From Chara braunii (Eukaryota > Plantae > Charophyceae), in contig BFEA01000028.1 in NCBI GenBank assembly GCA_003427395.1, positions 1,249,521 through 1,313,520 on the forward strand: a stretch of DNA of 64,000 nt. The letters run 5' to 3'. Every line of letters starts with the position of its first letter. Positions within the stretch are counted from its first letter, which is position 1. Position numbers and translations under genes: made by a program. A model generated the notes under the pieces. It ran no database searches. It had not been told where the DNA came from and saw only the letters and a list, made by a program, of their open reading frames with translations. Positions 1-20,917 of the stretch are shown piece after piece.

Positions 1-1195
1 CAGTTCGTGTCGATGTCGATCCAATAGTTTTGCCAATCTGCATTAGCGGCCATGCCGATGCTGTCGCGATAATAGTTCCATACCAGTTCCGTTCCAGTAA
101 GCGTACCAATGCCGGATCCGAAGAAACGCTCTGATTTACCGCCGCCTGCACTATTATCATACCGCTCGGTGCCGAGTGTCGTACCGTGCAATAATGCATT
201 GTAATAATACCGAGCGTGTCCCGAACCAGAGTATCGTGCCCGAATCGACCGAGCGGTAACACCCAAGCAATAAAGCCCAATCAAAATAGCACCGGTGGTA
301 ATCCCGCGTCGGGCATCCATCCCGCACTCACTCACTACACCCTGATTGGAACAATGTGGCGCTTAAGCAAATAAGGTAAGTTTAGCATGTCAAGCGGCAA
401 TCTCGATTATCGAAAAATTGAGAGAGTCGTTAGAATCAGGGTCGTTAGAATCAGGGTAAATAAATGATTCGGAATTAAACCCCCTCGCGAATAATTAAGT
501 AAAAATTAGTTAATTATCAGATAATCGTGGGTTTCCTTCTCGTTTTATTATTTTTAATTATTTTTCTTATTTCTTAGTTCCATTATCGAAAATAACGAAA
601 ATAAAAACAATCTTGTCAAAAATAAATTCCGATGGACTTCAATTCAATAACGTAAATTTTTTGTTTTCTTTTTCTTTTATGGCCTTGATCCCTTTTTTTT
701 ATTTTTAACTCTATTGTCATAAATTCCAATAATTGAGGGCGGTCCCATTAAAAATCAAATATCAAAGATTTTGAATAAATTAATGAATATTCTGTTTTTC
801 TCTTCTCTTCTTTTGTTTTTAATTTATTTTCTCATTTTTAATTTTGATATCAAAATTGATGATATCCGAGGTCTCACTTCTGCGCCAGTTGTGGAGTGTA
901 AAAGGACCACGCCTAAGCCTATCTCCATCTTGCTGTTCAGCAGGCGGCTGTCCCGGAAATTGGCTAAATGCGGCGGTATTAAGATAGACGCCGCCGCGGT
1001 AGAAGAGGTCGTCCTTCTTGTCAATTTCGAGAGTTAGTCTCAACGGTCGTCATATCTAATTTTAGGGATACTCGGGGTACCCCTAATTTTTGTTGCCTGG
1101 TCAAACCAGAGTACCGTCATTGCACGGACTTGTCTTTGAGCCTAAGTCCCTAAGCCGCAAATTTCAGGCGGCTCACTGCTTGTGGCCACCTGACA
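1..1195 (-). repeat. 3' LTR (partial)
   Basis: Matches 18443-19622 with scattered substitutions and a 15-bp tandem duplication (GTCGTTAGAATCAGG, ~426-455). Homology stops exactly at TGACA 1195. Confidence 0.93.
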
Positions 1196-1508: not shown

Positions 1509-2926
1509 CTATCGCCAACCCTTTGACCTTTCTTCTCTCCACCCTCTTCCTCTTCTTGGAACTCTCTCCTGCCTCATATCGTCTCGAGGGGGCTTCATCC
1601 TCCATTTTGGCCTTCCCTTTCCCTTTCGGGCTGTCAGCGGTAAGGTGGGTGCAGGCCTGGGTCTAAACAGCTTTAACCTAGCACCCGCCACTGGGTCCTT
1701 CCACTTGGATCCGTCTAATTCTGCTATCATATAGGCACCCCAGTCGAGCGCCTCAACCACTCTGTAAGGTCCCATCCATCTGTTGGCGAGTTTTCCGGTC
1801 CAGGTCCTTTCGAGAGCTGCGTCGTAGAGAAGGACCATATCTCCTACGCTCACCCTCTCTTTCCTGATCCACCACACCCTTATCTCATCTCTCTTTACCT
1901 TTGTCCCTCTCCACTGCCAGACGATCTGCTGTTGTCCTAAGGTTGTCTTCCAAACCGTAGGCTATCTGTCTTGCTCGGGCAGCTATTAGTTCCTCTCTGG
2001 ACATCCTTTCCGCTCAGTCGACGGTTGTCCAACTGTCGACGTGAAACTCTACTGGAATGGACAATGTCGCCCGAACCACAAGGTGTATGGTGGGTATCCA
2101 GTGCTAGCACGGACCGTGACGTTGTCCGCCCATATTGCGTATTGAAAATATCGTGGTCAATCGATGTCCTCACCTTTGCACCACTTGGATAGTGACGCTA
2201 TCAGAGTCTGGTGTCCCCTCTCTACTGGTGAGTTCGACTGTGGGTGGTAGGCGGTGGCTATTGAAACTCTCGCCCCGGCTCTCTTAACCACATTCTGAAC
2301 CTCCTCGGCTAGAAATTCCGCCCCTCTATCCATCACTATCTTGCTGACACAACCATAGCTAGATAAGTACTCTAGGACGAAGTTCTTCACTTCCCTAGCC
2401 GACTTACTCCTGATAGGTCTACCATCCATGAATCCAGTGAAGTCGTCTCGTATGTTCACAACATAGTTCATATTGCCTATTCCTTTCGGCATCTTCACCA
2501 GATCGATGTGTACCTTCTCTCCTGGCCTAGTCGGATAGGATGGATGAAGTGGCTCTTTGTATTTCACAAGAGCTCTCTTCTAACACTCCTCGGAGGTTAT
2601 ACAGTATCTCTCGACATCCTTATACTGTCCCTCCCACCAGTACAGTCTACGTACCTTTTCGTAGGTTCCTTTGACTCCTCTATAACCTCCGACCCGACTG
2701 GTCTTCGAAATAGATGACCCGCTCTAAGGCAGTACTGGGTTGCTTGTCTCCGGACATTTGAATCTTGACTCTCCTCTCCTGACAAGTGTAGCCCGATTGT
2801 TCGATATTTGCCCTCGTAAAGGTTAACCAAAAATCGATCGGCGCGTCTCGGTTCCGCCATTGTCACGGCTCCAACTACTATCGGGCGCTCGGCCTCAAGA
2901 GGGAACCGAGAAAGCCAATCCGCCAC
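1509..2926 (-). pseudogene. pol: Integrase (fragmented), with GPY/F motif and no chromodomain seen
   Basis: VHIDLV...DRGAEF...YHPQSNSPVER DDE core (2157-2567); WMGPYRVV in 1509-1877. Confidence 0.92.
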
Positions 2927-3063
2927 GACATTTTTAGTACCCGATATTCTCTCAACTGTGTAATCATAGAGTCGAATCCGTATTAACCATCGTGCGATGG
3001 TCGGGTCCGTTAGATTAAAGTCCTTCTGGAGGACTGCTCGGCCTCAAGAGGGAACCGGGAAAG

Positions 3064-3700
3064 TCAATCCGCCACGGCATTTTTAGTACCCGATATTCTC
3101 TCAACTGTGTAATCATAGAGTCGAATCCGTATTAACCATCGTGCGATGGTCGGGTCTGTTAGATTAAAGTCCTTCTGGAGGACTGAGGCAACCGCTATGG
3201 GATCTACTCGTAAGATGAACCGTCGTCCGTAGATATAGTGTCTGAACGTGTCTAGGCACCGCAGAACAGCTAACACTTCCTTCTTGAATTGACTATAGTT
3301 ACGCTCAACAGTATTAAGTGTTCTACGCTCAAATCTTAACGGTCTCTCCTTTCCTTCAGCATCCTTCTGAGATAGCAGACCACCAACTGAACAAGGTCCA
3401 GCATCCGTGGATATCACGAAGGGTCTCCTGGCCTCATCGTCAAAGAACGGCACGCCCAATACGCGTCCCCCTTCCTTAAATTTATCTTTAAGCTCTTGCA
3501 TTGCGAGTTCCTGAGAAGAATCCCAGTACAGTTTCTCAGCCTTCCGAAGGAGCAGCCTCAAAGGCTCAGCCTTCTCTACATACCCCCGTATGAAAATCCG
3601 CCAGTAGCCGACCACCCCCAGAAACTGTCGGACCTTGGTAGCACTATGCAACGGCGACGGCCAGTTTAGGAGTTTGTCTAGCTTCGCAGGATAAAGCCTA
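3064..3700 (-). pseudogene. pol: RT connection and RNase H
   Basis: VRQFLGVVGYWRIFIRGY; STDAGPCSVGGLLSQ; ERNYSQFKKEVLAV; GTKNAVAD. Confidence 0.92.
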
Positions 3701-4450
3701 AGATCTTTATAGTTGAGACGGCCCATTGGCTCTTTGTTCTGCTGACCGTCAAATTTGCATCGTCTAACTGTTTGAGTACCGCGCAAATATCGGTTAGGTG
3801 CTGCTCGACAAATCTCCTAACTCCTGGTACAACTTCTGCCTCATTTTTCTCTACTGGTCCTTTTATAGGGAAGTCATCCAAAAATACTTCAACCTTGTCA
3901 GGAATGAAGTCCTTGAGGACGGCTACCATGGCTCTCTGAAAAACGGCTACCCCATTAGTCCAACTCATAGGGACGACCATCATTTGTATCAATCCCAAAG
4001 GTGTGTACATAGTCGTGAGGTGTCTGTCCCTAGGATCAAGGGGTACCTTATTATAGCCTGATAACATATCACAAACCGAATAAATCGACATGCCCGCGGC
4101 GCCTTCAGCCAGTATGTCGGCGTGAGGTACAGAGCCTACGTCTCGGGATCGTCACCGCGTTGACCTTCTGCAGGTTCTGGATCCACCGGATCTTGCCATT
4201 CGGTTTTCGTAGGAAGAACCATCGATTAGCATAAGTGTTGTCAGATGGCTTTGCTACATGAGAAGCCATCTTCTCTTTCAGGAAAGCGATAACCTCTTCC
4301 TTCTCCTTCTGGGCGTATTTCCACCCTGCGCCATTCCATGGAACGTGTGGAATCGTGTAAATCCTCGCTGGTTTAGCGTAACGAGGGTCCACCCTTCCGC
4401 GCTCGGCGTCACTGAAAGCTATGGTCTTATCGCACGTCCTTAAAACTTCT
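3678..4450 (-). pseudogene. pol: Reverse transcriptase (frameshifted)
   Basis: YANRWFFLRKPNGKIRWIQNLQKVNAVT; CDMLSGYNKVPL; VPMSWTNGVAVFQR; VFLDDFPIKG catalytic motif. Confidence 0.93.
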
Positions 4451-4625
4451 TTGACACGTTCCCGCTCCTATGGGGTTAGATTTCCATCTCCGATGTCCAT
4501 TCCTGCTATCCTCTCTTCCGTTAGGCGCTGCGGCTCCTTTTTTTTCCTTTCTTTAATTTCCTTCGCGATCTCTCCTTCCGATATCCCTTCCAGCGCAGAT
4601 CGCTCGCCGCCCACTGCTGTTGGTT

Positions 4626-6010
4626 TTACGTTCTGAGCCACTCACTTGTGTCGCTTAAGCTGCCCCCCATAGGAGGTTGTGCCCTTAAAAAAGATACTAT
4701 GCCACTAAATTCCTCATTTGACTCCTTTGGATACGAGTTGCCGTCCACTATCATTCGGCTCCCTAAATCCTCCACTTCTATAATCCGGCCTTCTCCTTCC
4801 GTGAGCAGAGGTTCATACTTCTTCTCGCGAAATCGCACCGTGCGGCTGGAGATAGGTAATGATTTAATCCGATCGCTGGGCCCAGCACCCACAGCGAGAG
4901 CTGCTCTGTTTCTCGGGTATCGAGGCTCCACCGTCTCAATCATAACCCGAGTCCCATCTAGCTTCTTAATGGATAGTGTCTGGCTCCCATCTGATCGCTC
5001 TATCGTCACTGCATGCACATGACTCAACCATCTCCGCCCCAAGAGCAGGTCGGAGCTGCAGTTCTTGACTGCAAAGACTTACATGGTCACTCGTACTCCT
5101 TGAACCTCTATGGCTGCCTTGTGACAGACTCCTGTGATCTGTTGCTTCCTCCCATCAGCCGTCTCTATTTCGAATAAGTGTGTCCTATCGAGCCCCAGAC
5201 CAACTTGCTCTGCCAGATCCTCGTCTATAATGACAGCCTCACTGCCATTATCGATCACTGCATCTAGAACGGCTCCGACGTTTAGGATCGCCTCCACGGT
5301 CCCACTACCAAGTATGTAAAACTTGTCCGGAGGGACACCTTCCATCCCATCAAGAAGAACTGTTGCCATGCGATCTGCTCTTGCGGTCACCTCCGATACT
5401 GCTACAGTAGGAGCATCCGCGTTAGGGGCCACCTGAACCTCCTCTGATAGTGGAATGCGAGACTTTCGCGTGATCGTCTGTAACTCGTCTTGAGCCGGCT
5501 TGGATGCAGCCAGATATTCTAGTATAAAGCATTGCATGGGCTGCCGAAGGGCCCATCTCAGTGGCTCGACCGTGTCAATATCATCCAGCGAACTCTTCAT
5601 GAAGAACTTCTTCACTCCCTGCTTTCGTGGTGAAAGTATAACCTCCTCGCCATCGACCCGCTGTCCGTCCTTTTCTGCCATCACATAATCTGTGTCAGTC
5701 TTCCTCGATGCAGACCCTCTTGCCGACTTCGTTGCTGCCACCCTTATGGGTGCAGCTGCCATATCTCCTTCGAAAGTTATCCTAATGCTCTGGCTCCTTA
5801 CCGGCTCTTTTCCCTTACTCGGCCTCACTCTCCTCGCTTCTACATTCTCATTCATCGAAGGGAACATTGATACATCTCCCAAATCACCTGCCCACTTGAT
5901 GTACTTGCGGTCATCAAGCACGACAAGTCCCTCATCTATTGCCCGTTTGAGATCCGGACAATCTCTCTTGATATGATATCTCCTATGCAGTAGACGCAAG
6001 AGTTCCTAGG
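4626..6010 (-). pseudogene. pol: Zn knuckle, aspartic protease and linker (fragmented)
   Basis: C..C...YHIKRDC knuckle across a frameshift near 5990; LDAVIDNGSEAVII protease motif; D-L-L-L-G-R-R-W-L flap near 5040. Confidence 0.85.
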
Positions 6011-6109
6011 AGTGGGTGGCCTGTCGTCTACACTCCTCGAAATCGCCCCCCTCACTGCCCTCAGGTCAGGGGACTTGGGATACGGTTCAGATGAGGCACC
6101 ATATCCCCC

Positions 6110-7789
6110 TCAATCATTCCGGCCGCGCGAGTCATTGCGCCGGTCTCCTCCAGATCCTCCTTGGTCATATCGTCCCCGTGAATCATTCCGGTGGTCTCCA
6201 TGGTCGTATCGCCCGCGTGAATCATCACGCCGGTCTCCTCGGTCGTACCTACCCCGCGAATCGTCGCGCTGATCTCCCGCGAATCCCCCGTGGTCATACC
6301 TTCCACGCGAGTCATCTCGACGATCTCCGACTCGATCTCCTCTCTCATACCTGCCTTGCCTGTTTCCATCTCGGTCCGACCTCTCGTATCTGTCGTCACT
6401 GTATCCGTCTCGCCGATCTCGGTCCGACTCCCATCGACCCCGTGGGTCGCTCCTATCCCCATCAACCTCATGTCGAGGACTGCGCGAGTAATCATCCCGT
6501 CTCCTTGCTCGCCCATACGTCTCGCGAACCCTACGGTCTCGGTCTATCTCATCATCCCTTCGTCGCCATGGCTCATTTTCTCTCTCCATTTCCCTTACTC
6601 GATAATCGGTTAGCGTTCGAGGATTTCTATCCTCGACACTCCTCCAGGAATCGGTGTTCCTACGGTCCCACCGAAGTGAATAGGGCCCTCCGGGTTTGTC
6701 CCGGTATGTCGTGGCTCCCATATTGGTCACAATCTCTGTAACATGCCTAGTCAATCCCTTTACCATATCCCTTATCTCCTTCACTTCCTCAGCTACCGCC
6801 TCATTCTTTTCCAACCACGGATAGTCCTTGAAGTCAGGGCATTTATCAGTGGCATACTCTTTATAGAGAGAGAAGTCTCGCCTCCTCATTCCTCTCCATA
6901 CCAGACCCTTGTAGTCGTCTGCCTCTGCCTTTATCGCGAGCTTAAGGACTTCAGGGAAGTCAAGCTTGTCGCGCATAAAATCTCTAAGTATACTCTTTTG
7001 TCTCCTTTTGGACAGGTGTCCAATAAAAATAGTACAGCGCTCGACCTCTGAGATCTTCTGGAAACGCTTTCCGAATGCCCTAACGCTCTCGTCCTCATCT
7101 TGAGTCATGGTCTCAAGGTCCTTGATGGAGTACTTGTTATCCTCCAACTTGTAAAGTTCAATGAGGTTCTTCTTATACGTGGTCCATTTTCCATCCTTCG
7201 GTCGGGCTTCCTTAACTTCCTTGCCAAGACTTGGATCTACATTAAATAGGAAATTTTCCACAATCTCCTCCTCCGACCACTGACTCCGGCTCGCATGAAG
7301 CTCCCACTTCTCCAGATATTCTGTGATGCCATAACCCCTAAAAGTGGGAGGCTCAGAGGCCTTGTGCGTAATAATATAGCGATCCTTACTCTCGTAAGGA
7401 AGCGGATGCGACTCCCCTGTCTTGGGGTCGAAGGCTCGCCTGGGCAGCGCTCTGTCTCTATCTTTGTCCCTCCAATACCTCAAACTCTCTCTCCAGTCGT
7501 CCCTGTGCCTATCCGCCATGGTTTCCCTCCGCTCATACTCGGGGGAGCGTCGTCTCGTCGCTTCTCGTCGACCACTCGAGGTTCCTGTCTTCAATGCCTC
7601 CTCCGGCTCAGTCACGACTGGTTCGACCATTACGTCAGGTTCCCCGTCATTGGTCTGGTCAGCCCATCTCAGAGGTGCTCCCAGCCTAATTCGTTCCTTC
7701 AGTCCCCTCAGTGCACGGTCGGGCAATGTCCTGTACTCCTCTCTTACTTGGCCCGCGATCGATTGTGGCTCCATTGCGTCTGATTCCAT
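6110..7789 (-). CDS. gag: Gag-like protein (559 aa) with Arg/Asp-rich repetitive C-terminal part; frameshifted before the Zn knuckle
   Basis: PPTFRGYGITEYLEKWE and QDEDESVRAFGKRF resemble a retrotransposon capsid core. Lies directly upstream of the Zn knuckle/protease. Confidence 0.8.
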   Translation of the reverse strand: MESDAMEPQSIAGQVREEYRTLPDRALRGLKERIRLGAPLRWADQTNDGEPDVMVEPVVTEPEEALKTGTSSGRREATRRRSPEYERRETMADRHRDDWRESLRYWRDKDRDRALPRRAFDPKTGESHPLPYESKDRYIITHKASEPPTFRGYGITEYLEKWELHASRSQWSEEEIVENFLFNVDPSLGKEVKEARPKDGKWTTYKKNLIELYKLEDNKYSIKDLETMTQDEDESVRAFGKRFQKISEVERCTIFIGHLSKRRQKSILRDFMRDKLDFPEVLKLAIKAEADDYKGLVWRGMRRRDFSLYKEYATDKCPDFKDYPWLEKNEAVAEEVKEIRDMVKGLTRHVTEIVTNMGATTYRDKPGGPYSLRWDRRNTDSWRSVEDRNPRTLTDYRVREMERENEPWRRRDDEIDRDRRVRETYGRARRRDDYSRSPRHEVDGDRSDPRGRWESDRDRRDGYSDDRYERSDRDGNRQGRYERGDRVGDRRDDSRGRYDHGGFAGDQRDDSRGRYDRGDRRDDSRGRYDHGDHRNDSRGRYDQGGSGGDRRNDSRGRND

Positions 7790-7833
7790 AGACTACTAGA
7801 AGTTGCAGTCGGGCACTCTCACCCCGTATAAGC

Positions 7834-7966
7834 CCAGACCTATGACCGTAGCAGCAGCCCGAACCTATGACAGTAGCAGCAGCCCGGACCTATGACAGTA
7901 GCAGCAGCCCGGACCTATGACAGTAGCAGCAACCCGGACCTATGACCGAACTCGCAGCCCGGACCT
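7834..7966. repeat. 25-bp tandem repeat, about 5 copies, just upstream of gag
   Basis: (CCCGGACCTATGACAGTAGCAGCAG)n. Confidence 0.9.
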
Positions 7967-8099
7967 GTCTACTTGTCACGGTTCGCGTCCGTCTCCAACC
8001 CTAGCTCTCGGCTGCTCTGATCACTGCCACTAATACTCCGTTCTGGTCGCGGACCTCGTATTCCTCTTCTATCCCAATAATCCCTGTGCCCATGTAAAC

Positions 8100-8799
8100 T
8101 TATCCTTCGGGTTCTGTCAACAAGGCCGCCCCTCTCCTGATCTGCACTTCACCCGTAACAGGATCCCTTCGCCTGTTGCAGATCGTGGTCCTAAGTCTAA
8201 CCAATGTCTCCTGAGTAGCGCCCCTCAACAGTGCTCGTGCGTCTATCTCCGTCCTCCTCTTAAGACCATCTAGTCCTTCCTGACTCGGGTGACCCTCAAA
8301 CGGAGGGAACTCTCCTCCTATCGCCATCTCTAGCCGCTCCTCTCACCATCCTGACAAAGTCCACAGTTGGTTCCTACTCGTTGTGAGCTAATCCCTTGTC
8401 AGGAATCGGGGGTCTAGGCAGGGTATCGAAAATGGCTATGTCATCACTGACCTCGACTATCTTCCCAAGTGCTTCTAATCTCTGTTTCTCCTCCCTTAAC
8501 TTCCGGGCAACTATCCTCCAGCACCTTGTGTACGTACAAAACTCCTCTCTCTCCCTTGACAAGTATATCCCTATGTGATATGTGTCGAGACCCGGAAAGT
8601 ACACGGTCATAACATAGAATTGGTTGCGCTCCTAACCACTGTTCGCTTCCTGATAGGCAACGACGTCATAAGGAACCAGTTCCCTGCGACTAATCCCGCT
8701 TAGTCCCCGTAACAGTCTCTCTCTCTCGTGTGGTAGTGGTCCACTTCATCCACCAAACTTCCATCTCCTCCGCTGCAACTCCTCGGGAGGTAGGGTCAT
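8100..8799 (-). pseudogene. Accessory ORFs G and H (degenerate; 8374-8799 and 8100-8327)
   Basis: ATG at 8799, 4 nt after the ORF F stop, then an early stop or frameshift; 78-aa and 75-aa frames remain. Confidence 0.35.
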
Positions 8800-8803
8800 C
8801 TGT

Positions 8804-9319
8804 CTAGCATCTGAGACAGGTCAGCGCTATAGCTGCTCGTAATCTCGTCGCCGACAACTCCAATATATCATAGAACGCCTCAAATTCTTCCTCATCTCCA
8901 CTATCCTCTATGGCCTCTAAAGTCTTTATCGATTCCCTCCAGTATCGGTCATGAGCAGTTAGCACCCTGAGTATTGCTCCGTCTACTATAACTCTCCCTA
9001 GCTCTCCAACTCTCCTGGCTTCGCTTATCTTCAACCTCTCAGCCTCTCTGGACGTCTCGTACCACGCCCTTATCTGAGGCCGCCCTTCGAAAGGTGTTAC
9101 GCGAAGTACGTATTTTATCCTTCGTCCTCCTTCCACTCCAATCCAAAGTCCTGTTCCCCTAGCCTCTTGCAGTGCACGGCAAACATACTCTGCCTCCTCA
9201 ACTACGCACAACCTGGTATGGAGCTGGAGCTCTGCAATCACTAACACCAACGGTCCGTCCAGTCTCCCTACCACATGCAATGAGTACCTGTCCCTCGTGT
9301 ATAGTGCAGTCCCGCTCAT
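8804..9319 (-). CDS. Accessory ORF F (171 aa)
   Basis: ATGA overlap with ORF E; globular composition. Confidence 0.5.
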   Translation of the reverse strand: MSGTALYTRDRYSLHVVGRLDGPLVLVIAELQLHTRLCVVEEAEYVCRALQEARGTGLWIGVEGGRRIKYVLRVTPFEGRPQIRAWYETSREAERLKISEARRVGELGRVIVDGAILRVLTAHDRYWRESIKTLEAIEDSGDEEEFEAFYDILELSATRLRAAIALTCLRC

Positions 9320-9636
9320 GTCATGTTGCTATCCCCCTGCGTTACCTTGTCCTTCGTTGTTACGTCCTCTGCAGACTTTTCCTTAACTCCTTCGCGCGAT
9401 AGGTTCCTAGCCTTTACCCTCTCCTGAAAGTTTGATCTCCACGCCTGGATAATCTCTTTATCCTCCCTGAAGATACTCTCTAACTCTTTTGTCGCGAGCT
9501 CAACCCTACGCAATTTGCCCTCATCCTGGCACGACCCGATCTCCCTTATCTTGTTCCCCAACTCCTTTACCCGGTTCAAGAGTGGTTCTTTAATGCGCTT
9601 TCTCACTCTTCCGACCGCCTCACTTTCCTCTTCCAT
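9316..9636 (-). CDS. Accessory ORF E (106 aa, charged, coiled-coil-like)
   Basis: ATG start, E/K/R-rich; its stop overlaps the next start as ATGA. Confidence 0.45.
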   Translation of the reverse strand: MEEESEAVGRVRKRIKEPLLNRVKELGNKIREIGSCQDEGKLRRVELATKELESIFREDKEIIQAWRSNFQERVKARNLSREGVKEKSAEDVTTKDKVTQGDSNMT

Positions 9637-9666
9637 ACTCTGTCCACATCGTTTTCCAGCTCATCC

Positions 9667-9948
9667 TCATACCCTCGCTCTAGCCTCTGCTACCGTCTCA
9701 TCGTGGTAGTGCTCCACGCGCATATAACCATGAGACCACATCATCACATCATAGGAAATCGAGGTCTGGAAGGTCACCTGCGCCAGTACATCAGCCCTAT
9801 GCTCGAGGATCAAATCCCTAGCTCGTAGTCGGCACTCCCTCACCGTCAAGTCATCATCTATGTATGCTCGAAGAAGTACCGTCACAGTGTACCCTGTGCT
9901 GACCAGTTGCTTATCTAAGCGCATCACAGTTGCCGTTCTCCCCGACAT
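9667..9948 (-). CDS. Accessory ORF D (93 aa)
   Basis: ATG 3 nt after the previous stop; VLLRAYIDDD weakly resembles the N-terminal strand motif of A and B. Confidence 0.45.
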   Translation of the reverse strand: MSGRTATVMRLDKQLVSTGYTVTVLLRAYIDDDLTVRECRLRARDLILEHRADVLAQVTFQTSISYDVMMWSHGYMRVEHYHDETVAEARARV

Positions 9949-9951
9949 TCC

Positions 9952-11303
9952 CTAAGCTGCGTCCTCGAAGAGAAACCTCACATCCTCCAGCCCCACATAA
10001 TCAATCTCCGGTCGTCTCCTGCAGTGCCTAATCAGATCGACTGGCCTCAAACAGTCCACCCAGCAAGTAGCGTCTATGATGTCGTCAAGCGTCTCTCTGC
10101 TGGGTGGCCCCCACCTTACACAAATGGAGTAGTACGCTTCCCTGAAACGGGGAGCTAAGCCCTCCCAAAGCGCGTAAAGTGTGTGGTCCACTACCTCACT
10201 CAGACGGTCTACACTCCCGTAGGTCTGCCCTATTACGAATGCAGGAAGTCCAAATCGCCAACCCTCTTCCGGGTAGAAGGTCGGATACGGAAGTCCATAT
10301 ACCAAGCGACTCTAGTACGACCTTCCTCCTGAGAGTCTCGCCAGTTGCTGATTAACGATCACTCTGGCCAACAACTCGTTTCTCCACCAAGCCCTGCTAG
10401 CCCCTACGAGTGTCAGCCCTACGTCTAAATCATGAGCTCTGTCCGTTATCAGATGTCCCACCCCTTCTAGGTCATGAGTCCTTTCGGGTCATCTATCTTT
10501 CAGTATCACCGTCCAAAGGAAAAGTCCCTCTGCCAGTTGCGTTCCAAGGTAACGTATCAGAACACAGCCAGTCTCCTCTAACCTCACAGGAAGAGGAATA
10601 TCATATCCAACAGCCGTCTCTCTGGGTCTCCTCACGCTATAGGATTTGGAACACAGCCAGTCTCCTCATGACCTTCCTCCTGAGAGTCTCGCCAGTTTGC
10701 TGATTAACGATCACTCTGGCCAACAACTCGTTTCTCCACCAAGCCCTGCTAGCCCCTGCGAGTGTCAGCCCTACGTCTAAATCATGAACTCTATCCGTTA
10801 TCAGATGTCCCACCCCTTCTAGGTAATGAGTCCTTTCGGGTCGTCTATCTTTCAGTATCACCGTCCAAAGGAAAAGTCCCTCTGCCAGCTGCGTTCCAAG
10901 GTAACGTATCGGAACACAGCCAGTCTCCTCTAACCTCACAGGAAGAGGAATATCATATCCAACAGCCGTCTCTCTGGGTCTTACAAGTTTCCTCACGCTA
11001 TCGGAACACAACCANNNNNNNNNNNNNNNNNNNNNNNNNNNNNNNNNNNNNNNNNNNNNNNNNNNNNNNNNNNNNNNNNNNNNNNNNNNNNNNNNNNNNN
11101 NNNNNNNNNNNNNNNNNNNNNNNNNNNNNNNNNNNNNNNNNNNNNNNNNNNNNNNNNNNNNNNNNNNNNNNNNNTATCGGAACACAACCAGTCTCCTCTA
11201 ACCTCACAGGAAGAGGAATATCATATCCAACAGCCGTCTCTCTGGGTCTTACAAGTTTCCTCACGCTATAAGTTAGCCAAGCTGCTGAGTCACTCCTCAT
11301 CAC
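9952..11303 (-). pseudogene. Accessory ORF C, broken by an N gap and a ~352-bp repeat
   Basis: Fragments 10998-11303, 10637-11185 and 9952-10305; the last has GLPAFVIGQTYGSV, similar to ORFs A and B. Confidence 0.5.
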
Positions 11304-11321
11304 TCAAGCTAACTCATTAAC

Positions 11322-12488
11322 TCAAGTCGCCCAATCGCTATGGGCTAAGTTCTTGACAATAGGCCCCTCTCGTTCCTTCGCTCTCAGTTCCAGCCCGTGA
11401 CTGGCGGAGCAGGAATCCCTTCTTCTCTCACTGAACTCCGTCCCCAGACGCGGCCAATGGATGCTACCCTCCTCTGGCCCGTCCTTGGGCCAGTCCTCTC
11501 CGAAGAGATCCGCCAACCCTAGGTCCGGCTGTACCCGGATCCTACGGCCGTCGTCGTCGAAAATCCACTGGTCCGATTCCTCCTCTGGCCAGTCCTCATC
11601 CGCTTCCCCTATGTCGTGGTACCCGTAGTGGCACTCGAGCTCGTTGATCCTAACAAGCCCTGCGTCCGGCCAATATGACTCGTCGTCAAACAACGTGGCC
11701 ACGCCTCCCAAATGGTAAGTCCCCCTTGATAGAGCACTCCGGAATACGTCGTAGGGGAAAGGCTCTCCCTCAGACGCCCACAGGTATACGAACGATCGGA
11801 CAAACTCCACAAGCTCTATACGGTCCTCCCTGTCTATAAAGCCTCGCAAGAGTTGAGCAGAGTAGAAAAGTCGCCTCTGGACATTGCTCTGAAAAAGTCT
11901 CTCAAGCTCCTTCGTAAGGAGATAACTCTGCACCAGGTTCCCTATCCCACCGAAGAGCTGATCCACTACGAACAAAGGGATCACTGTCGCTACTTCGAAG
12001 AATCCTTGTGGATATGGAAAGTACCATGGCGCTGCTAAGGCTAAGTGCCCCCTCACAGGACACGGCCTCGTATCGCTACACCACGGTCTGCGCTTCTCGA
12101 AGAAGTCCTCCTCGCCTCTGACTGTGTCCCTAACCTCTGCGTCGAGAATGTCCTCCGCCTTGCGTATCGAGGTGCTCTCTCCCAACGTCAAGCTCTCCAC
12201 TATAATCGTGACCTCTGCGGTCCTGTCTATGTATATATATGCCCTCACGTCTATCCTCATCGAGTCGGGTACTACCCGTCCTCGACGGTCGTGCTCAAAG
12301 CTCGCGTCGTGGTACATCCACATCCATACTCCCCTATCCGCAAGCACGGATCTGGGGCTGCGATAGTCTCTGTAGGAGGCTCCTTCACGACTCACGAAAG
12401 GAACCTCCACTGTCTCATCGTCATACAACTCAGGGACGTTAAAGGACGAGGTCGGAAAGACGTCATAATCCTCTGGCATAGAGGTCAT
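11322..12488 (-). CDS. Accessory ORF B (388 aa, unknown function; paralog of ORF A)
   Basis: ATG 4 nt after the ORF A stop; shared motifs VR(G/A)(F/Y)(L/I)Y(L/I)D, GHL and VIPxFV. Confidence 0.7.
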   Translation of the reverse strand: MTSMPEDYDVFPTSSFNVPELYDDETVEVPFVSREGASYRDYRSPRSVLADRGVWMWMYHDASFEHDRRGRVVPDSMRIDVRAYIYIDRTAEVTIIVESLTLGESTSIRKAEDILDAEVRDTVRGEEDFFEKRRPWCSDTRPCPVRGHLALAAPWYFPYPQGFFEVATVIPLFVVDQLFGGIGNLVQSYLLTKELERLFQSNVQRRLFYSAQLLRGFIDREDRIELVEFVRSFVYLWASEGEPFPYDVFRSALSRGTYHLGGVATLFDDESYWPDAGLVRINELECHYGYHDIGEADEDWPEEESDQWIFDDDGRRIRVQPDLGLADLFGEDWPKDGPEEGSIHWPRLGTEFSERRRDSCSASHGLELRAKEREGPIVKNLAHSDWAT

Positions 12489-12492
12489 ACGT

Positions 12493-13344
12493 TTAGAGGT
12501 CCCTACCTCTCCGCTGTCCGGGGATAGCTACTCCTATCCGGGAAAATCCTGCGTTCATGTCTATGCCCCTCTCCGGCTCCTCAACCACGGCCTCTCTTTC
12601 GTCCTCGTCGCGTCGCTTGTCAACAAAATACGGAGGGTACCGAATCGCCTCGTAATATCGCTCCAACTGGCCCGAGTACACCAGAGCCCCAGAGTCCCTA
12701 TCCAGTCGGACCCACCAATCATCAACGAAAAGACTGTCTATACAGGTGATGAACTCTGGTCTCGCGCAGAGCTCCCGATCAAGCAGGTCCCATACGTATG
12801 CGAGAGGGGAAACACCCCACAGGTGCTTTTGTGCCCTCGGAGCTATCGACCGAATCAGCTCTATGAGTTGTATCCCTTCGTCGCCTCTACGTGGTCCTCC
12901 GGTCATGAGCGAATAATAAATGTAACACCTGTCTAAATCCCCTCTTGCAAAAAACTCCAACTCGCTGTAGGCGAGGTAAGCCTCAGCTAAGCCGCCTACT
13001 CCTCTGAACGTGCCTTCCGTCACGAAAGCGGGAATTACTGCCCTAAGCCACGACGTCGAGTACGAGAAGAAGTTGCGTCGTGCGACCCGCAGATGTCCTG
13101 TGACCTCTAAAGGAGGTAACCCTAGAATCAAGGTCAACGGGTCGCGGGCCGCCTCCCCTCGAAAGGCGCCTACCTCCTCTTGGACAATCTGTGACGCTCT
13201 CTCAATGATAGGACTTGTCTGGTAGATCGCTAACGACCATGCGACATCCTTGGCCTTATCTAAATCTAGGTAAAGAAAGCCCCGCACTACGCCTCTAGAC
13301 CGACCTCCGTCCTGACCTCTCTGGTGCTCTCGATACGTCCACAA
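12493..13344 (-). CDS. Accessory ORF A of the retrotransposon (283 aa, unknown function; true start uncertain)
   Basis: Long ORF of globular composition between PBS and gag; aligns by eye with ORF B. Confidence 0.65.
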   Translation of the reverse strand: MWTYREHQRGQDGGRSRGVVRGFLYLDLDKAKDVAWSLAIYQTSPIIERASQIVQEEVGAFRGEAARDPLTLILGLPPLEVTGHLRVARRNFFSYSTSWLRAVIPAFVTEGTFRGVGGLAEAYLAYSELEFFARGDLDRCYIYYSLMTGGPRRGDEGIQLIELIRSIAPRAQKHLWGVSPLAYVWDLLDRELCARPEFITCIDSLFVDDWWVRLDRDSGALVYSGQLERYYEAIRYPPYFVDKRRDEDEREAVVEEPERGIDMNAGFSRIGVAIPGQRRGRDL

Positions 13345-15090
13345 CCAAGCACCAGTGGTGAGAAGGGTAGACCTCCAACCTGATTGACCATCGTGTTCGA
13401 AGGTCGGTCAGGCGGGTAACGTTAACTCTACCAAGTCGTCTCCTAGGAGTTCCGGGGGTTCTATTCCCCAGGCAGGATCGACTTCGTACTGCTCCACAGC
13501 CTCTGGCTGCCACATCCAAGCAATCGTCCCCTTTCACAGGAATCACCGGGCCCCGCTCCCGAATAGAACCTCTACGCCTCCTGACCGAGTCTCCCCGATC
13601 ACGAGGCGGGTGTCCCACTCGATAGAAACCCTTAGGAGTATTCCTCCAGCGAGTTCCTGGCCAGCGGGAGTCCCTCTCTAAAAGTCTATAAAAAAAACCC
13701 TAAATCGGGAAGGCTAGCGTCATTCCCTTAGCCATCCCTAATCTCCAATTTTATTTAAGGGTATTTAATTCGGGAAAATTACTGAATTTCTTTCCTCCCC
13801 CTATCTCCTACTCTCGACTCACTCCTCAGACTAATCCAGGAAAGGTCTGTAGGCAGTCCTAGGTTCCGCCGCCTTCTTCCGGCCCTCCTTTAGGAATTTT
13901 CTCTAATTTTAACCAATTAATTAGGGATAATTAGGTTAAAGTCAGAGAATCCCTTTCCTTGGTTTGGTGGCCGAGTAGACTTGTTTTCCAAACCTACCTC
14001 AAAATCTGGCCAATTTTCTGGCCTTCCCGACTATTTTACTTAATTTTCTTGACTTAATCAGATTTAGTTCTAATAAAACAGAGGAGATGCCTGTAAAATT
14101 CGTTTTCTTATTTTACTCCTATCTAGGGCTATATTTTACATTATGTCTCTCAGTCCCAAAATTTTTGATGGATCTATTTAATTACTAAAAATTTTCGAAA
14201 AAAATTGGCAGCATCTCCCCTCCCCCCTTTGGGATGGGGTTCGGAGCTGTTGCCCCTAGCTCAGCAGTCTAAAGAAGGAGCCTACAAATTTTGATCCAAA
14301 TAAATCAAAATTTACTTAATCCATTTTCAAAAAATAATTTTCGTTTCAAGTAAATAACAAAAATAACAAGAAAGAGGAATCATAAGATAATTCAGATTTG
14401 TTTCGAACCAACTTTTACATGTTGCTCCTCGGGGTTGTTAGAGTTTAACTAACTAGGGTTTCGGGGTTTTGTGCGCAACCGCACGCTCGCCCCCGCCCCT
14501 CGTACAACCCCGGGATTTTCCCTGCTGACCCTCCTAAATATCCGAAAAATCTTTATCCGATTACTTTCCTTTAATTTCTATTACCCCATTTTTTTCACAA
14601 AATGTAAAAGAAAATACAAATTTTATTTTTGTTTTCCAAATTTTTCTTCGTTGTTCGTTGCTGTTTCAGCCCCTAACTAGCTCTGATCATCTCGCCCTAG
14701 GTATCAAAACGACAAGAAAAAAAAGCTGAATAACTTTGGTCCAGGGGTTATCCCTAAAAAAAGGACCAGTTTCTCGCAATAAATTAAAAGGAAATACTGG
14801 TAATTTTGAATTATTAAATAAGAAAATAAAAAATTTTAATTATCTTTAATTCCGACAGTTAGAAATTCGCAAGAAACGTCTCAAAACGTTCGCCTCGTCA
14901 TGAGGTCGAACTTTCCCCTCAAGGTACTTCGCGCAAAAACACACGGTTGATGAGTTATCTTAAAAGGAAATATTTTTAGATTTTAACAAAAATAAGAAAA
15001 ATCGACTAATCAACTTATTGAAGCTAATTAGTCGTTCCCTGGGCACCCCCGTTATGTGGGGAAGGTCGTGGCCTTGGGGGTGTGATCCCC

Positions 15091-15108
15091 TCCCCGGCAA
15101 CGGCGCCA
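15091..15108 (-). promoter_or_regulatory. Primer-binding site, tRNA-Asp
   Basis: Minus strand TGGCGCCGTTGCCGGGGA is complementary to the 3' 18 nt of plant tRNA-Asp; the same PBS is used by Athila elements. Confidence 0.9.
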
Positions 15109-15284
15109 AATTTGTAAGGAAACCCGGGGAGGGGCCTTCACTGTGCGGTGAAGCCAAGGGGTACAGTGCCTGTCACTTCACTGCCCCCGCTTCGGAGGTC
15201 CTCAACGACCAGCAAGGTGTGCAAGTTTCGGAATGCCCGTCAATCGCGCGCCCATACAAGACTCTTATTCACTTTGTTCAGGAA

Positions 15285-15585
15285 GTATAGCAACAAGTGA
15301 AAGCAAGACTCTAATCATTGTGATCGGTGAATACAACAACAAGTGTAAGCAAGGCCCTGTTCGTTGTGGTCAGCGAATACAGCAGCAATTGAAAGCAAGG
15401 CCCCGCTCGCTGTGATCGGCGAATACAGCAGCAACTGCATAGAAGGTCCTGCTCGCTGTAATCAGCGAATACAACAGCAAGTGTATAGAAGGCCCTGTTC
15501 GCTGTAATCAGCGAGTACAACAGCAACTGAAAGCAAGGCCCTGCAAGTGGAAACAAGGCCCCGTTCTTTGTGATCAGCGAATAGT
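15285..15585. repeat. ~45-bp tandem repeat, about 6 copies, in the LTR
   Basis: GAATACA(A/G)CAGCAA...AAGGCCCTGTTCGCTGTAATCAGC units. Confidence 0.85.
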
Positions 15586-16597
15586 GTTTTTCAAGGAACA
15601 TGAGTTTCAATGACATTGTGTGCNTNTATGCAGAAAAGACCTCACAAATCTTTGNTGANATGCCTGTTTGGAAGTAACNTTTGCGGTATGANTCAGCAGT
15701 TGCTCGCCCATCCACCTTCACACAGTATGTATCACAAGGTGGATTATCCAACAATGAGAAAATATTTTGAAACAACCCCCAATTTGAAAGTCCATGCAAG
15801 ACAGTTCAATCATGACGCGACTAGAAATCTTTTGGTGGGCCACTCTTGGCGTTGATCAGACGACAGTTATTCTCAACCGAGGGGTTTATGCACCTACTGG
15901 GTTTGGTTCTCACTTCCTTTCTCTGCACACACTCTCTCCCTCTCGGTACGCTCTCTCTCCCACTCCGCTCTCACTTTTTTCCTCTCTGCACGCTCTCTCT
16001 CCCTGGCTCGCTCTCTCCCCCCCTTCACACTCACTCTTTCCCTCTCTGCACGCTCTCTCTCCCTGGCCCGCATTCTCGCTCCGCTTCCCCCAATTCCCTC
16101 TCTCTCTCTCTCGCACGGAGTAGCCCTCTTGCGTGCGAGCAGATTGTAACCAGGTTGGCACGAAGTCTTAAATGATGTGTTCGATTGAGCAACTCTCAAT
16201 CGGCCAGCATTATAATCCCCAGTAATACCCTGAATGGCAATTTGAAATCGATTCGGTTCAGGGTTTGGAACGACACCCTCGTCCGAGTTGATCTCGATCG
16301 ATCTGAAATAAAGTTCCTTAAAATGCCCTTAATTCAGNCGCTTGTAAACGATCGGCCTCTTGAGGTCTAGGAATTAATGGAGTTAAAATCTTTCAAACAT
16401 AAGATAAAGAAAATAAATAAATAAAACATAATAAAAGACTCAATTGTGCTATATAAAAAAAACAGAAGTATTTGTCGGGGTCTAACCAGCGAAAATAGTT
16501 ACCCCCGTCAGCGACGGTATACTTCTGCCTGTTCGGACTGATTTGTGAGGTCAGTTGTTCCCATCAGCAGCAGTGGACTCTTGCTTAATTTGACCAC

Positions 16598-16897
16598 TCC
16601 CACAGGGTATTCTGGACAGATCAGCAAACGTACTTCGGTTAGTCCGCTCGCAGAGGCTATTCGCAGCAGATCAACAAGTATACTTTGATTAGCCTGCTCA
16701 CACAGACTATTCTCGTTAGATCTGCAAGGGAACTTTGGCTGACCCGCTCACAGCGGCTATTCTCAACAGATCCGCAAGTGTACTTTGGTTAGCCTGCTCA
16801 GACAGGCTATTCTCGTTAGTACTGCAAAGGAACTTTGGCTGGGCCGCTCACAGCGGCTATTCTTAACAGATCCGCAAGTGTACTTTGATTAGCCCGA
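16598..16897. repeat. ~50-bp tandem repeat, about 6 copies with ~99-bp dimer period, in the LTR
   Basis: GCTCAC...GCTATTCTC...AGATC.GCAAG...ACTTTGG units alternating between two variants. Confidence 0.85.
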
Positions 16898-19800
16898 CAT
16901 GTGAAAATAGTCGTTCCTGATTGCTGCAGAGGTTCTTGATGGGGCTGATTCACCGAAACCGGCTACCCTAGCCCGCAGCAGAATTACTTAATTAGCTCGA
17001 ACCAGGGAGCCAAGTCGTTTCTGCCATTTGCTTAATTGGACTGGCTCGGTAGACTGGCTGTATCCGCCGGTTGCTCCCTCTATTCCCCGCTCGCCCTCTC
17101 TCTCGTTCCTACACTGATGGAATCATACCCGTTCGCCAACNTCCCTTCCTCCCTTNTTCCCTCCTCGAACTCTCTCCATCTTGATCTCTCTCCTTCTCAA
17201 TCTCTCTTTCCCNCACCTATACTGTGCANGCCTCTCTCCGTTCCGAACTTACTNGCNAAACCCTCTCTTTGCCTGCCTNTTCTCTCTCTCTCTATCTGAT
17301 TACACGCTCTCTTTCCGCCAGAGCACTCTCTATCTGGCAGTCCACTCTCTTCTTCCTTTTTCACCCCTTTCGTTCCCTCTAATCCGCGGAAAACACCCCC
17401 CCCTGTGCTNAGTCAATCATCTGNGGAAGACGTCANNCCGGAGGAAGACGTCAGTCTGTGGACGCCGCACCGTGCACCGCTTGGTGCGCCCCTCTGCCCG
17501 TTGTGCCTGCTCATGAACCGACTCTATGCCAGCGGGNTACGCACGCCAGGCACGCTCAGTGCCTTNCTCTGCTAACCGGGGCTTTTGCGCGAGCGTGNCC
17601 TGCNNACATCAAGCACGCTGAATCCGCTCACNTCAGATCTTCCTCCCTCTCTGGCTGTCAAAGAGGCCTTTTGCTTGCGCGTTGCNTACACCGGGCATAC
17701 GCAGTGTCTCTCCTCGTTCCTCCTCTCTCGTTGATCGCCCTCAGCGNGGACACATCCCAGATNNAGTCCGAAGGGGGCTNAGTACACCTGGCGNGCGAGT
17801 CTGCCCCTNTCTCATCTNTCTCAATCTCTCTNGCTGNCGCCTGCCTGGCGCGTCGTTCCCCCTTGCTGAAACGCGCTGTGCTGGCTGAGGTGTACGCCAG
17901 GCACGNTGTCCCCTGCAGCTCGTTGACCTTCTCTCCTTCAGACGCGATCCCAGGCTGGGTACACCTGGTGCACCCCCCCCTGGTGTCCCGTTTGTCGCTC
18001 TATATCCACACGTGAAAGCTGCAGCACGGGTACCTTCGAATCTTTTCGCTTCTTTCATCGCCCAGGCCCTGAAACGGGAGCTAGCCCCTCGGCACCAGCG
18101 GTACTAGGGCTATAGGTTTGGCATAGGCATTTCTTCAAGTGACAATGTCGCCAAAGCCCAGGCTTTAGGCCCGGTAATAGCAGCTCACGGACCCAGCAGG
18201 ACCGATGCAAATTCAGGGCTCGCGGTGAAGGGTATCAAAAGCCAATGCAGCCGGTCGTCATCGCTTATTCCGCACAGTCAAACCATGTTGCCGGGATAAT
18301 TGCAGTGACTAAAATAATCCTCCCCAGCGAATTATCATGGAAAAAAAAATTAGTACCCTCGAATAAATGAACCACAACAGTCCTGAGGTGGATCGGAGTT
18401 TCATACTAGGACATACCAATATCGAACCGCCCAATACCGTACCAGTTCGTGTCGATGTCGATCCAATAGTTGTGCCAATCTGCATTAGCGGCCATGCCGA
18501 TGCTGTCGCGATATTAGTTTCATACCAGTTCCGTTCCAGTAAGCGTACCAATGCCGGATCCGAAGAAACGCTCTGATTTACCGCCGCCTGCACTATTATC
18601 ATACCGCTCGATGTCGAGTGTCGTACCATGCAATAATGCATTGTGATAATACCGAGCCTGTCCCGAACCAGAGTACCGTGCCCGAATCGACCGAGAGGTA
18701 ACACCCCTGCAATGAAGCCCAATCAAAATAGCACCGGTGGTAATCCCGCGCCGGGCATCCATCCCGCACTCACTCACTACACCCTGATTGGAACAATGTG
18801 GCGCTTAAGCAAATCAGGTAAGTTTAGCATGTCAAGTGGTAATCTCGATTATCGGAAAATTGAGAGAGTCGTTAGAATCAGGGTAAATAAATGATTCGGA
18901 ATTAAAACCGCTCGCGAATAATTAAGTAAATATTAGTTAATTATCAGATAATTGTGGGTTTCCTTCTCTTTTTATTATTTTTAATTATGTTTTTTATTTC
19001 TTAGTTCCATTATCGAAAATAACGAAAATAAAAGCAATCTTGTCAAAAATAAATTACGATGGAATTTAATTAAATAACGAATTTTTTTTGTTTTCTTTTT
19101 CTTTTACGGCCTTGATCCCTTTTTCTTATTTTTAACTCTATTGTCAGAAATTCCAATAATTGAGGGCGGTCCCATTAAAAATCAAATATCAAAGATTTTG
19201 AATAAATTAATGAATATTCTGTTTTTCTCTTCTCTTCTTTTGTTTTTAATTCATTTTCTCATTTTTAATTTTGATACCAAAATTGATGATATCCGAGGCC
19301 CCACTTCTGCGCCAGTTGTGGAGCGTAAAAGGACCACGCCTAAGCCTATCTCCATCTTGCTGTTCAGCAGGCGGCTGTCCCGGAAACAGGCTAAAGGCGG
19401 CGGTATTAAGATAGACGTCACCGCGGTAGAAGAGGTAGTCCTTCTTGTCAATTTCGAGAGCTAGTCTCAACGGTCGTCATATCTAATTTAAGGGATACTC
19501 GGGGTACCCCTAATTTTTGTTGCCGGGTCAAACCAGAGTACCATCATTGCACGGACTTGTCTTTGAGCCTAAGTCCCTAAGCCGCGGATTTCAGGCGGCT
19601 CACTGCTTGTGGTCGCCTGACAAAGTATCCATCCTACTATAAACATGGGTGATCACCTGAATCGACAAGCAGGCACACATCATTAGTCTGATGAGCAGCA
19701 TTGATTGCCCTCAACCGAGGGGATTAACTGGCCATCGCAGTCTAACATCATATCCCTAGTCTGAATCCCTCATCATCTACAAAATCGTTCTTGCAGCACC

Positions 19801-20409
19801 CGGGGAGGAGGGACATTCAGAATAGGGGGCAAGAAAGTCAATTATAGCAAAACCTTGGACAAAGTCCGATTCCACCATTGCACTGTATTATGTAATGTTA
19901 CCTGCACCATATCCCCCCCACGATCCTCATAATCCACGAATCCACTCAAGTAGGGAGACACAGTTTACAAAGATTCATAGCCACGTGCTTACCTAATTAA
20001 TCATAAGCATGTGCATACAGAAAAAGTCAAAAATGTGGCAGGGCCCCAATCAATCACACACTTTTTTTACACAGAGGATGACGTCTCGCATGCTGAGGAT
20101 GGTGGGCAAGATGAGGAAGACGTGATCAATTACTACGCTAATATTTGTCCAGGGTGTGTGGATTGGGAAGTAGAAAATGAGATGGGTCGTGAAGGGGCTG
20201 GGTGGGACAGGGATGAGTATAAGGTTGGGGCTGGCGGGTGGTGGGAGAATCTGATGAAGCTCTCTTACCAGGTCGACACCAAGAGTGCCGACGTTGACGG
20301 TGACCAGGCAGATGAGTGGGAGGTGGAGCTGGGGTTCATGGCAGAGGCGATAGATGCGGTAGAGGAGCGGCAAGGAATGGGCGAGATGGGCGAGAAGGGT
20401 TAGAAGGAT

Positions 20410-20506
20410 GACAACAACAACAACAACAACGGTGAGCAGGGAATGGGTGAAATGGGCGAGACGGGCGGGAAGGATGATAACAACAACAACAACAACAACA
20501 ACAATT

Positions 20507-20571
<65 letters not shown>

Positions 20572-20611
20572 GAGATGGGAGAGATGGGAGAGAAGGATGA
20601 CAACAAGGATG

Positions 20612-20657
<46 letters not shown>

Positions 20658-20900
20658 AAACAATCACAACAACGACACCCATACCGCCTCTGCTTACAAC
20701 AACAACAATAACAACGACAACAACGACAACAGCAACAACAACAGAAGCGTCGACAACATCGGCGACGTCAACAATAATGAGATGGCATGCAACGGTGGAA
20801 AGGAAGGAGAGATTCTCTGCTTGAGCGCGCTCGGGAGTAATAATAACTACAGCAATAACAATAACGACAACAACAACTACAACATTAACGATAACAAAAA
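20410..20900. repeat. (AAC)n microsatellite region
   Basis: Long interrupted AAC runs. Confidence 0.95.
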
Positions 20901-20917
20901 CGACACCGCTCACCGAA

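Follow-up and report, generated by a model that had tools for sequence, protein, structure and literature searches.

Remains of several same-strand open reading frames upstream of gag in a decayed Ty3/gypsy retrotransposon of Chara braunii

Introduction

Extra open reading frames (ORFs) 5' of gag are a rare but recognised feature of retrotransposons, and we know of none in plants with an assigned function. The Ogre elements of legumes, which are giant plant Gypsy elements, have a single such frame, ORF1, ahead of gag, to which no function is assigned. Caulimoviruses express a polycistronic pregenomic RNA through reinitiation driven by TAV. Here we describe a Ty3/gypsy long terminal repeat (LTR) retrotransposon on the minus strand of a 64,000-nucleotide stretch of the charophyte Chara braunii (contig BFEA01000028.1 of assembly GCA_003427395.1, positions 1,249,521 to 1,313,520; hereafter the window, whose coordinates are used throughout), which holds the remains of a block of sense ORFs between its leader and gag.

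In rice, the Ty3/gypsy elements Retrosat2, RIRE3 and RIRE8 have long LTRs and an ORF0 without assignable function between the 5' LTR and gag-pol, and ORF0 is reported to diverge far faster than gag-pol (non-synonymous divergence, Ka, of 0.26 versus 0.08 for ORF1) (PMC3485330). In a study of the Drosophila MDG1 group (412, mdg1), two ORFs upstream of gag, sORF1 and sORF2 (~110 and 70 amino acids), are described as lying in sense, depending on the LTR promoter and having a low ratio of non-synonymous to synonymous substitutions (dN/dS), with sORF2 encoding a small membrane (FAST-like) protein (10.1101/2025.03.14.642691). Additional ORFs of plant elements sit upstream or downstream of gag-pol, most frequently between pol and the 3' LTR, according to a review (PMC7264820). 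Literature searches on Chara braunii retrotransposons, LTR and Gypsy elements, judged by titles and abstract openings and not reaching the Chara genome paper, gave no description of the ORFs reported here.

The Chara element shares with the rice elements a large size and sense extra sequence of unassignable function between the 5' LTR and gag-pol; unlike the single ORF0 of rice, it has an array of five or six ORFs, with tandem paralogs and two small ORFs, in a charophyte host. This comparison is by description, and a profile search of 1.84 billion proteins with the domain common to ORFs A and B of the array returned Chara braunii only. The likeness to Ogre, again by description, lies in an extra ORF 5' of gag in a plant Gypsy element, the difference in Ogre having a single one. 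With the MDG1 group, the element has in common more than one sense accessory ORF upstream of gag; unlike sORF2, the small Chara ORFs E and F are without a hydrophobic segment, and the A-type ORFs are 285-388 amino acids long and acidic. As in caulimoviruses, neighbouring ORFs of this reverse-transcribing element lie end to end or share a few bases (ATGA, or stop, 3-4 nt and ATG); unlike caulimoviruses, it has LTRs and an integrase, and neither a transactivator-like protein, homologs of movement or aphid-transmission proteins nor a supporting sequence motif was found.

The known theme is an extra ORF upstream of gag, and what is new here is a multi-ORF, partly paralogous accessory block, in a decayed copy. 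We think it probable that this Chara braunii Ty3/gypsy copy retains the remains of five same-strand accessory ORFs, likely translated, which would aid replication or escape from silencing. The element family is very abundant, and it places several upstream ORFs in a close algal relative of land plants.

The ORF block upstream of gag

A sequence-only reading of the locus had described same-strand ORFs tiling 8100-13618. These are present on the minus strand, where an ORF scan gives ATG-initiated ORFs at 12493-12906, 11322-12488, 10998-11300, 9667-9948, 9316-9636, 8804-9319, 8374-8610 and 8100-8327, and the four junction strings reported with them are exact: TAA-ACGT-ATG, TAG-GGA-ATG, an ATGA overlap and TAG-ACAG-ATG. 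Seven ATG-ORFs of at least 75 amino acids total 1048 amino acids, as compared to 153 amino acids on average and at most 724 in 300 shuffles, and the plus strand of the block has no ATG-ORF of that length. ORF density in the block is above chance.

This excess, and the four exact junctions, would suit an intact cassette of some eight accessory genes that are translated, as in caulimoviruses, by termination-reinitiation. The count of about eight extra genes proved too high: several of the ORFs are decay fragments, and at least three are fragments or unsupported (the tail of A, the head of C, and H and I). Upon comparison with other copies, which were judged through gene models and public Chara braunii reads and contigs, the block consists of A, B, C-R-D, E, F and G. 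The sense ORFs A to F lie between leader and gag at 13515-9316, and about five accessory ORFs (A, B, C-R-D, E and F) remain in these ~4.2 kb. All 17 database relatives of B (2), D-E-F (5) and G (10) are hypothetical gene models of Chara braunii; one member of a relatives' cluster is the window's own ORF B.

ORFs A and B

ORF A (340 codons, minus strand, 12493..13515) opens at ATG 13515 and ends at a natural TAA, 12495-12493; the 137-amino-acid ORF at 12493-12906 is merely its tail. It aligns from Met1 with the gene models P0005, P0026, P0027 and P0029, with 48-51% identity to P0005 and P0027, and its premature in-frame stop at 13408-13410 reads Gly in P0005. ORF B (388 codons, minus strand, 11322..12488) is intact and begins 4 nt past the stop of A. 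It is 88-90% identical to the Chara braunii models P0001 and P0002, the latter of which starts at the ATG of B. The window copy can produce at most B.

A and B are 28% identical over 255 amino acids (E = 7.6e-18), and B is, at the level of sequence similarity, a clear paralog of A. An alignment of five sequences of the A/B family has 45 invariant columns, and in one of 12 sequences the family can still be made out where identity falls to 24%, the frames being open over 285-388 amino acids. Six A-type sequences have a common start position; the acidic tail closes in an 'HFPRIGVAV'-like motif, and in four sequences the stop follows 2-30 codons past it. Diverged A-type ORFs are found in at least nine other gene models. 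One rival explanation regards the upstream ORFs as non-functional passengers, drifting relics of recombination or capture whose apparent conservation comes from recent copying and gene-model bias. Because paralogs at 24-50% identity keep their 285-388-amino-acid frames, starts, tail motifs and invariant residues, drift alone is inadequate, which counts against that rival.

A profile of the A/B domain searched against 1.84 billion representative proteins gave eight matches, with E values from 5e-18 to 6e-155, all of them from Chara braunii. Metagenome contigs yielded no relatives of the A-type alignment, the 598 pattern matches being rejected by tblastn. As judged from these searches, the A/B protein family is known so far only in Chara braunii. 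The proteins are predicted to be strongly acidic (net charge -15 to -35), and they are most hydrophobic in the conserved IPxFV..FGGIGG motif. In one model, P0028 (CBR_g56535), the A-type domain stands at the C-terminal end and the first 580 residues are the protease/pol of another retroelement; it is probably an element nested in another, read as a single gene.

ORF C-R-D

The third ORF, C-R-D (minus strand, 9952..11300), has its ATG at 11300, 21 nt past the stop of B, and its stop TAG at 9954-9952; the scanned ORF at 10998-11300 is the head of this longer frame, which passes through a repeat unit, R, into D. C-R-D is broken by a 352-bp tandem duplication (10319-11270) that is not a multiple of three, and by an assembly gap of 160 N (11015-11174). 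Its stops at 10489-10491 and 10312-10314 read Arg and Trp in P0005, to residues 314-521 of which it is 74% identical and which ends at the D stop. The leader of C-R-D and its motifs LWT, IPxFV and YYS..RWG align with the A/B domain. Matches to the A domain are weak (blastp E = 0.004; for R-D, hhalign E = 0.056 over 164 collinear columns), and C-R-D is a possible third paralog, remote from A and B. The A-type domain is ~50% identical where D is 74% and gag-pol ~80% identical, a contrast that resembles the fast evolution of rice ORF0.

P0005 was also considered as proof of a single A-R-D ORF. This was dropped, as P0005 omits the A tail and the C leader found in its nearest relatives.

ORFs E and F

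ORF E (~95 codons, minus strand, 9661..9948) has an ATG at 9948, 3 nt past the D stop, a second ATG at 9924, and two successive stops, TGA 9669-9667 and TGA 9663-9661. It is intact in all five other gene models. The first TGA is a minority reading: the position reads AGA in 29834 of 30841 (run X1) and 29229 of 29607 (run X3) of the DNA depth, or 97-99%, and Arg in 25 of 26 RNA reads. ORF F (106 codons, minus strand, 9316..9636) opens at ATG 9636, consists to 43% of D, E, K and R residues, and ends in a TGA that overlaps the ATG of G (ATGA). E and F lie in one frame, which in the models P0004 and P0019 stays open across both TGAs, with R-G-R and R-G-S at that place. Master copies may carry E and F as one ORF or as two.

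We asked how the window differs from the family majority across E and F, using the 39 near-fixed differences among the best 40 of 110 variant rows, a set into which the window's post-insertion decay is mixed. Third codon positions account for 20 of the 39, and 17 of 39 are synonymous in the coding frame, as compared to 8-9 of 40 in the two other frames. In E alone, 10 synonymous stand against 7 non-synonymous fixed differences, a non-synonymous to synonymous ratio (pN/pS) of ~0.23 (P = 0.003). These codon patterns indicate that E evolved under purifying selection. The synonymous excess, confined to the coding frame, is a second point against reading the upstream ORFs as passengers.

Neither E nor F has a membrane-like segment on a crude scale test, the maximum 19-residue Kyte-Doolittle mean being 0.73 for E and -0.26 for F. 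Metagenome contigs hold no E-F relatives, the 63 pattern matches having been rejected by tblastn. P0004 and P0019 have a common join, from F ('..SCQ[D/G]E', window 9520) to mid-gag ('..DEDESVRAFG', window 7102), at a short 'QDE' identity. The two models look like a deletion-derivative subfamily without G and the gag N-terminus, in which E-F is fused in frame to the capsid part.

ORF G and the interval before gag

ORF G (171 codons, minus strand, 8804..9319) ends at TAG 8806-8804. Nine of its ten longer homologs start at the G ATG and run on into gag sequence, and in P0013 Retrotrans_gag directly follows G. The gene models join G to gag at no fewer than five different points. P0008 and P0009 have Tyr in place of this TAG, which is confined to a minority of copies; the ATG behind TAG-ACAG opens just 17 codons, so that this fourth junction speaks against a cassette of eight genes. 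G may form the N-terminus of Gag or stand as an upstream ORF of its own, the sixth. Beyond it lies a low-copy variable interval (minus strand, 7793..8803) with ORFs H (8374-8610) and I (8100-8327), for which the only matches found are one of 24 amino acids (P0016) and one of 28 (P0022); nothing indicates that the interval codes, and there is no reason to call H and I genes. Within this interval, just upstream of the gag ATG, a 25-bp unit is repeated 5.4 times in tandem (7831-7966).

The joining of G to gag in nine models raises a second rival explanation: the master element would have one long N-terminal Gag extension, and every junction in the window would be a decay mutation, as the sequence-only reading had itself foreseen might prove to be the case. 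E-F is continuous in P0004 and P0019; D, E and F have the same frame, B and C another common frame; and P0005 joins A' to R-D in one model. Part of this holds, since the stop between E and F is a minority mutation and the stop of G is private to a minority. The rest argues otherwise. A, B, C-R-D/E/F and G occupy three different frames, and A-type ORFs end independently past the same tail motif in four sequences. Two copies retain the A stop, one as TAA and the other as TAG, and the models for other copies take the ATGs of B, E (at the 9924 or 9936 position) and G as their starts instead of running through from upstream. The P0005 join skips 40-70 residues kept in its closest relatives, as an invented or predicted intron would. 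We therefore regard a single Gag extension as unlikely and return to the reading of separate accessory ORFs.

Translation of the upstream ORFs

How might separate ORFs be read? The LTR promoter would give a single full-length RNA, from which the accessory ORFs would be translated to serve element replication or escape from host silencing. ORF A would be the first AUG of this transcript and read by ordinary scanning, because the 185-nt leader ahead of it contains no ATG. Stops and starts are spaced by 4 nt at A/B, 21 nt at B/C, 3 nt at D/E and 24 nt at E/F, with an ATGA overlap at F/G; the B/C and E/F junctions are short spacers additional to those of the sequence-only reading. A DNA contig spans the A/B junction free of gaps, with TAG in place of TAA and the two amino-acid changes of P0002, and the stop-ACGT-ATG junction is therefore present in at least one further copy. 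It is possible, though we lean against it, that the later ORFs are reached by stop-start coupling at these short junctions; spliced or internally started RNAs would be about equally likely as a route.

Several of the observations below weigh against translated, functional accessory ORFs or some part of that reading. Motif 1 of the termination upstream ribosome-binding site (TURBS) is UGGGA, complementary to 18S RNA. In the 100 nt ahead of each of the five junctions there is no TGGGA; the motif comes from calicivirus work and may not apply to plants or algae. Thirty-three ATGs stand ahead of E, and AUG depletion is not strong: A, B and C-R-D contain 8, 12 and 13 ATGs, with z of -0.7 to -1.9 versus dinucleotide shuffles. 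In a leader translated by leaky scanning, as in rice tungro bacilliform virus, the upstream ORFs would contain hardly any AUG in whatever frame, which is not the case here. To our knowledge, serial reinitiation past ORFs of 340-388 codons would be unexpected in eukaryotes without a transactivator, and Pfam finds no transactivator-like protein among the upstream ORFs.

Of the proposed caulimovirus-like reinitiation, only the tight spacing fits. The intact eight-gene cassette does gain from the two further short spacers and from the A/B junction kept in another copy. It loses with the E|F stop being a minority mutation, with a TURBS-like motif at none of five junctions, with the lack of AUG depletion and of a transactivator-like protein, and with the fragmentary ORFs described above; we consider it very unlikely. 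There is a slim chance of something bolder, an abundant charophyte Ty3/gypsy lineage with operon-like five or six accessory genes before gag, serially translated by stop-start coupling from one RNA, two or three of them tandem paralogs of a family existing nowhere else. If true, no known retrotransposon leader would carry more genes, and an LTR element of the green lineage would be using caulimovirus-style expression. Should the frames be open in young copies, the family would in any case be a natural system in which to ask how eukaryotic ribosomes get past 4 kb of upstream ORFs to gag.

Abundance, RNA reads and the passenger alternative

To compare the parts of the element, genomic-run contigs were placed on 1200-15600 at a likeness of at least 90% and their word depth was summed, depth here not being copy number. 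Word depth is 7,500-88,000 over pol and gag, 15,000-30,000 over 8896-10338 (D, E, F and the start of G), ~3,000 over 10339-10819, ~590 over 10820-11300, 40-48 over 11301-13705 (A, B and the leader) and ~190-240 over 7934-8895 (the end of G, H and I). Depth over the block is very uneven (~40 to 30,000), so that the block is no uniform cassette common to the whole family. These data show that D-G accompany the larger part of the family and that the interval before gag is variable. A and B, at just ~40-48 where D-G, gag and pol are in the thousands, are either a small subfamily or diverging too fast for recruitment at 90% likeness.

In run X6, 967 RNA reads were placed, 882 of them at 90-95% likeness, covering pol, gag and 8896-10819; a separate placement put 156 reads on 9290-9975. 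The raw RNA runs X5 and X7 gave 8 and 22 reads. RNA reads from family copies span D to G, and almost none lie on 11301-13705 (A, B and the leader). At this low depth, the RNA reads contain no joints.

Other counterpoints concern the comparison with other copies, which relies mostly on gene models: these are picked for open frames, and their introns may be invented. Of the five E-containing models, four begin at the 9924 position, one at 9936 and none at ATG 9948, so that the precise TAG-GGA-ATG spacing may not be conserved. Among the best 40 of 110 variant rows there is no majority difference at the second TGA (9663-9661), the D stop or the ATGA. The sequence-only reading had held that dN/dS of about 1 would tell against it; E departs from such a value, but F, with 6 synonymous versus 13 non-synonymous differences (pN/pS 0.56, P = 0.18), is near neutral and indistinguishable from it.

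Several of these results are what passengers would show: A and B are low in copy and unseen in RNA, the ratio in F is not significant, and homologs are absent beyond one species in the protein profile and metagenome scans. Recent copies of B, moreover, differ by ~2-8% in DNA and 10-12% in protein, roughly neutral decay. Set against the retention of frames, starts and motifs among diverged A-type paralogs and the coding-frame signal in E, they leave the passenger explanation a minor though real share of the probability, and we continue to prefer accessory ORFs that evolved as proteins.

Function and fold

Searches for function gave nothing to build on. Pfam returned no match for any upstream ORF or intact relative at E up to 1, and a PDB sequence profile none at E up to 10. 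In the ESM Atlas, P0005 had no feature match, its own model having a predicted local distance difference test (pLDDT) score of 0.28, and the best score for the E-F part, 0.77, is below noise level. AlphaFold2 modelled P0005 (5 sequences) at a mean pLDDT of 41 and P0027 (12 sequences) at 47.8, with only residues 45-145 of the latter at 70-86. This sole confident fold of the A-type proteins is predicted to comprise three strands, three helices and one strand. The P0027 model had no match at E <= 0.001 in BFVD, nor at E <= 0.001 in a Foldseek search of the PDB.

Two candidates for remote similarity were set aside. StART/Bet v 1-like and GNAT-like folds (VIA-wide, best Z 5-5.9) are not claimed, lying under a background Z of 7-8. 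A second idea, in which the N-terminal half of the A domain would recur in both E and G, was dropped, as hhalign gives E vs A, G vs A and E vs G a probability below 1% in each case.

The proposal that the block encodes silencing suppressors or movement factors finds no Pfam, PDB, Atlas or fold match. What is supported of the wider suggestion of a virus-like accessory block in a Gypsy element is the presence, from leader to gag, of additional sense ORFs with a history of evolution as proteins. Fast-evolving, duplicated and very acidic, the A-type proteins might act at an interface of conflict between host and element, for example by countering silencing; we offer this tentatively, as one possibility among others. 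If young master copies keep the frames open, the ORFs would be candidates for element-encoded, host-directed factors acting in silencing, RNA export or packaging.

The element and its surroundings

The element is placed in Ty3/gypsy by its LTR pair, the order of its pol domains and the relatives of its gag. The demonstrable part of the 5' LTR (minus strand, 18443..19622) begins TGTCAGG at 19621, and the 3' LTR (minus strand, 1..1195), truncated by the window start, also begins TGTCAGG. The pair is in direct orientation and 94.1% identical over 1195 nt (1-1195 versus 18443-19622), and a purine-rich tract lies just upstream of the 3' LTR at ~1196-1240. No terminal inverted repeat was found in 13300-18443, the 3' LTR being cut by the window start; a search for tRNA genes in the window, for comparison with the primer-binding site, gave none, and an Rfam scan of 1-20000 found no family at gathering score. 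The stretch 13700-18443 may all be LTR, which would then total ~5.9 kb, or may have nested material inside.

The gag ORF (559 codons, minus strand, 6110..7789) comprises a capsid region and an Arg/Asp-rich repeat tail, and the CCHC knuckle just downstream of it is split by a frameshift. The window's gag itself has no Pfam match; relatives 80-85% identical to it have PF03732/PF19259 and CCHC. Its C-terminus (6110-6560) is a long RDDSRGRYD-like Arg/Asp-rich repeat array, over which another frame is open for 160 amino acids; the gene model P0008 uses that frame.

The pol region (minus strand, 1509..6005) survives as at least seven frame-shifted pieces with protease, reverse transcriptase (RT), RNase H, integrase and an SH3/chromo-like end. 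Pfam places protease (5079-6005, PF13650), RT (3678-4151, PF00078), RNase H (3064-3816, PF17917/PF17919) and integrase (2157-2579, PF00665) in this order on the minus strand, in several frames, followed by the SH3-like end (1509-1961). A 149-bp tandem duplication with 97% identity (2887-3184) lies in the RNase H/integrase linker. With an LTR pair 94.1% identical, pol domains scattered over many frames and this duplication, the copy in the window is an old, dead and decayed Ty3/gypsy element.

Between the demonstrable part of the 5' LTR and the leader are tandem arrays of 46/92 bp (15289-15544) and 50/100 bp (16597-16896), and single N calls are scattered through 15624-17906. In the same region, 14668-15148 is high-copy (depth ~3,600) between single-copy-like flanks (11-20), with RNA reads present and a contig joint that ties 2117 to 15118; the segment could be a piece of some other repeat. 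Outside the element, dense short-period direct repeats (9-nt and 10-16-nt spacing) occupy 20402-20773 and 26018-26612, and a gap of 390 N follows at 26635-27024. For the annotation of the genome, at least 25 Chara braunii 'hypothetical proteins' are parts of this element family, often with doubtful introns.

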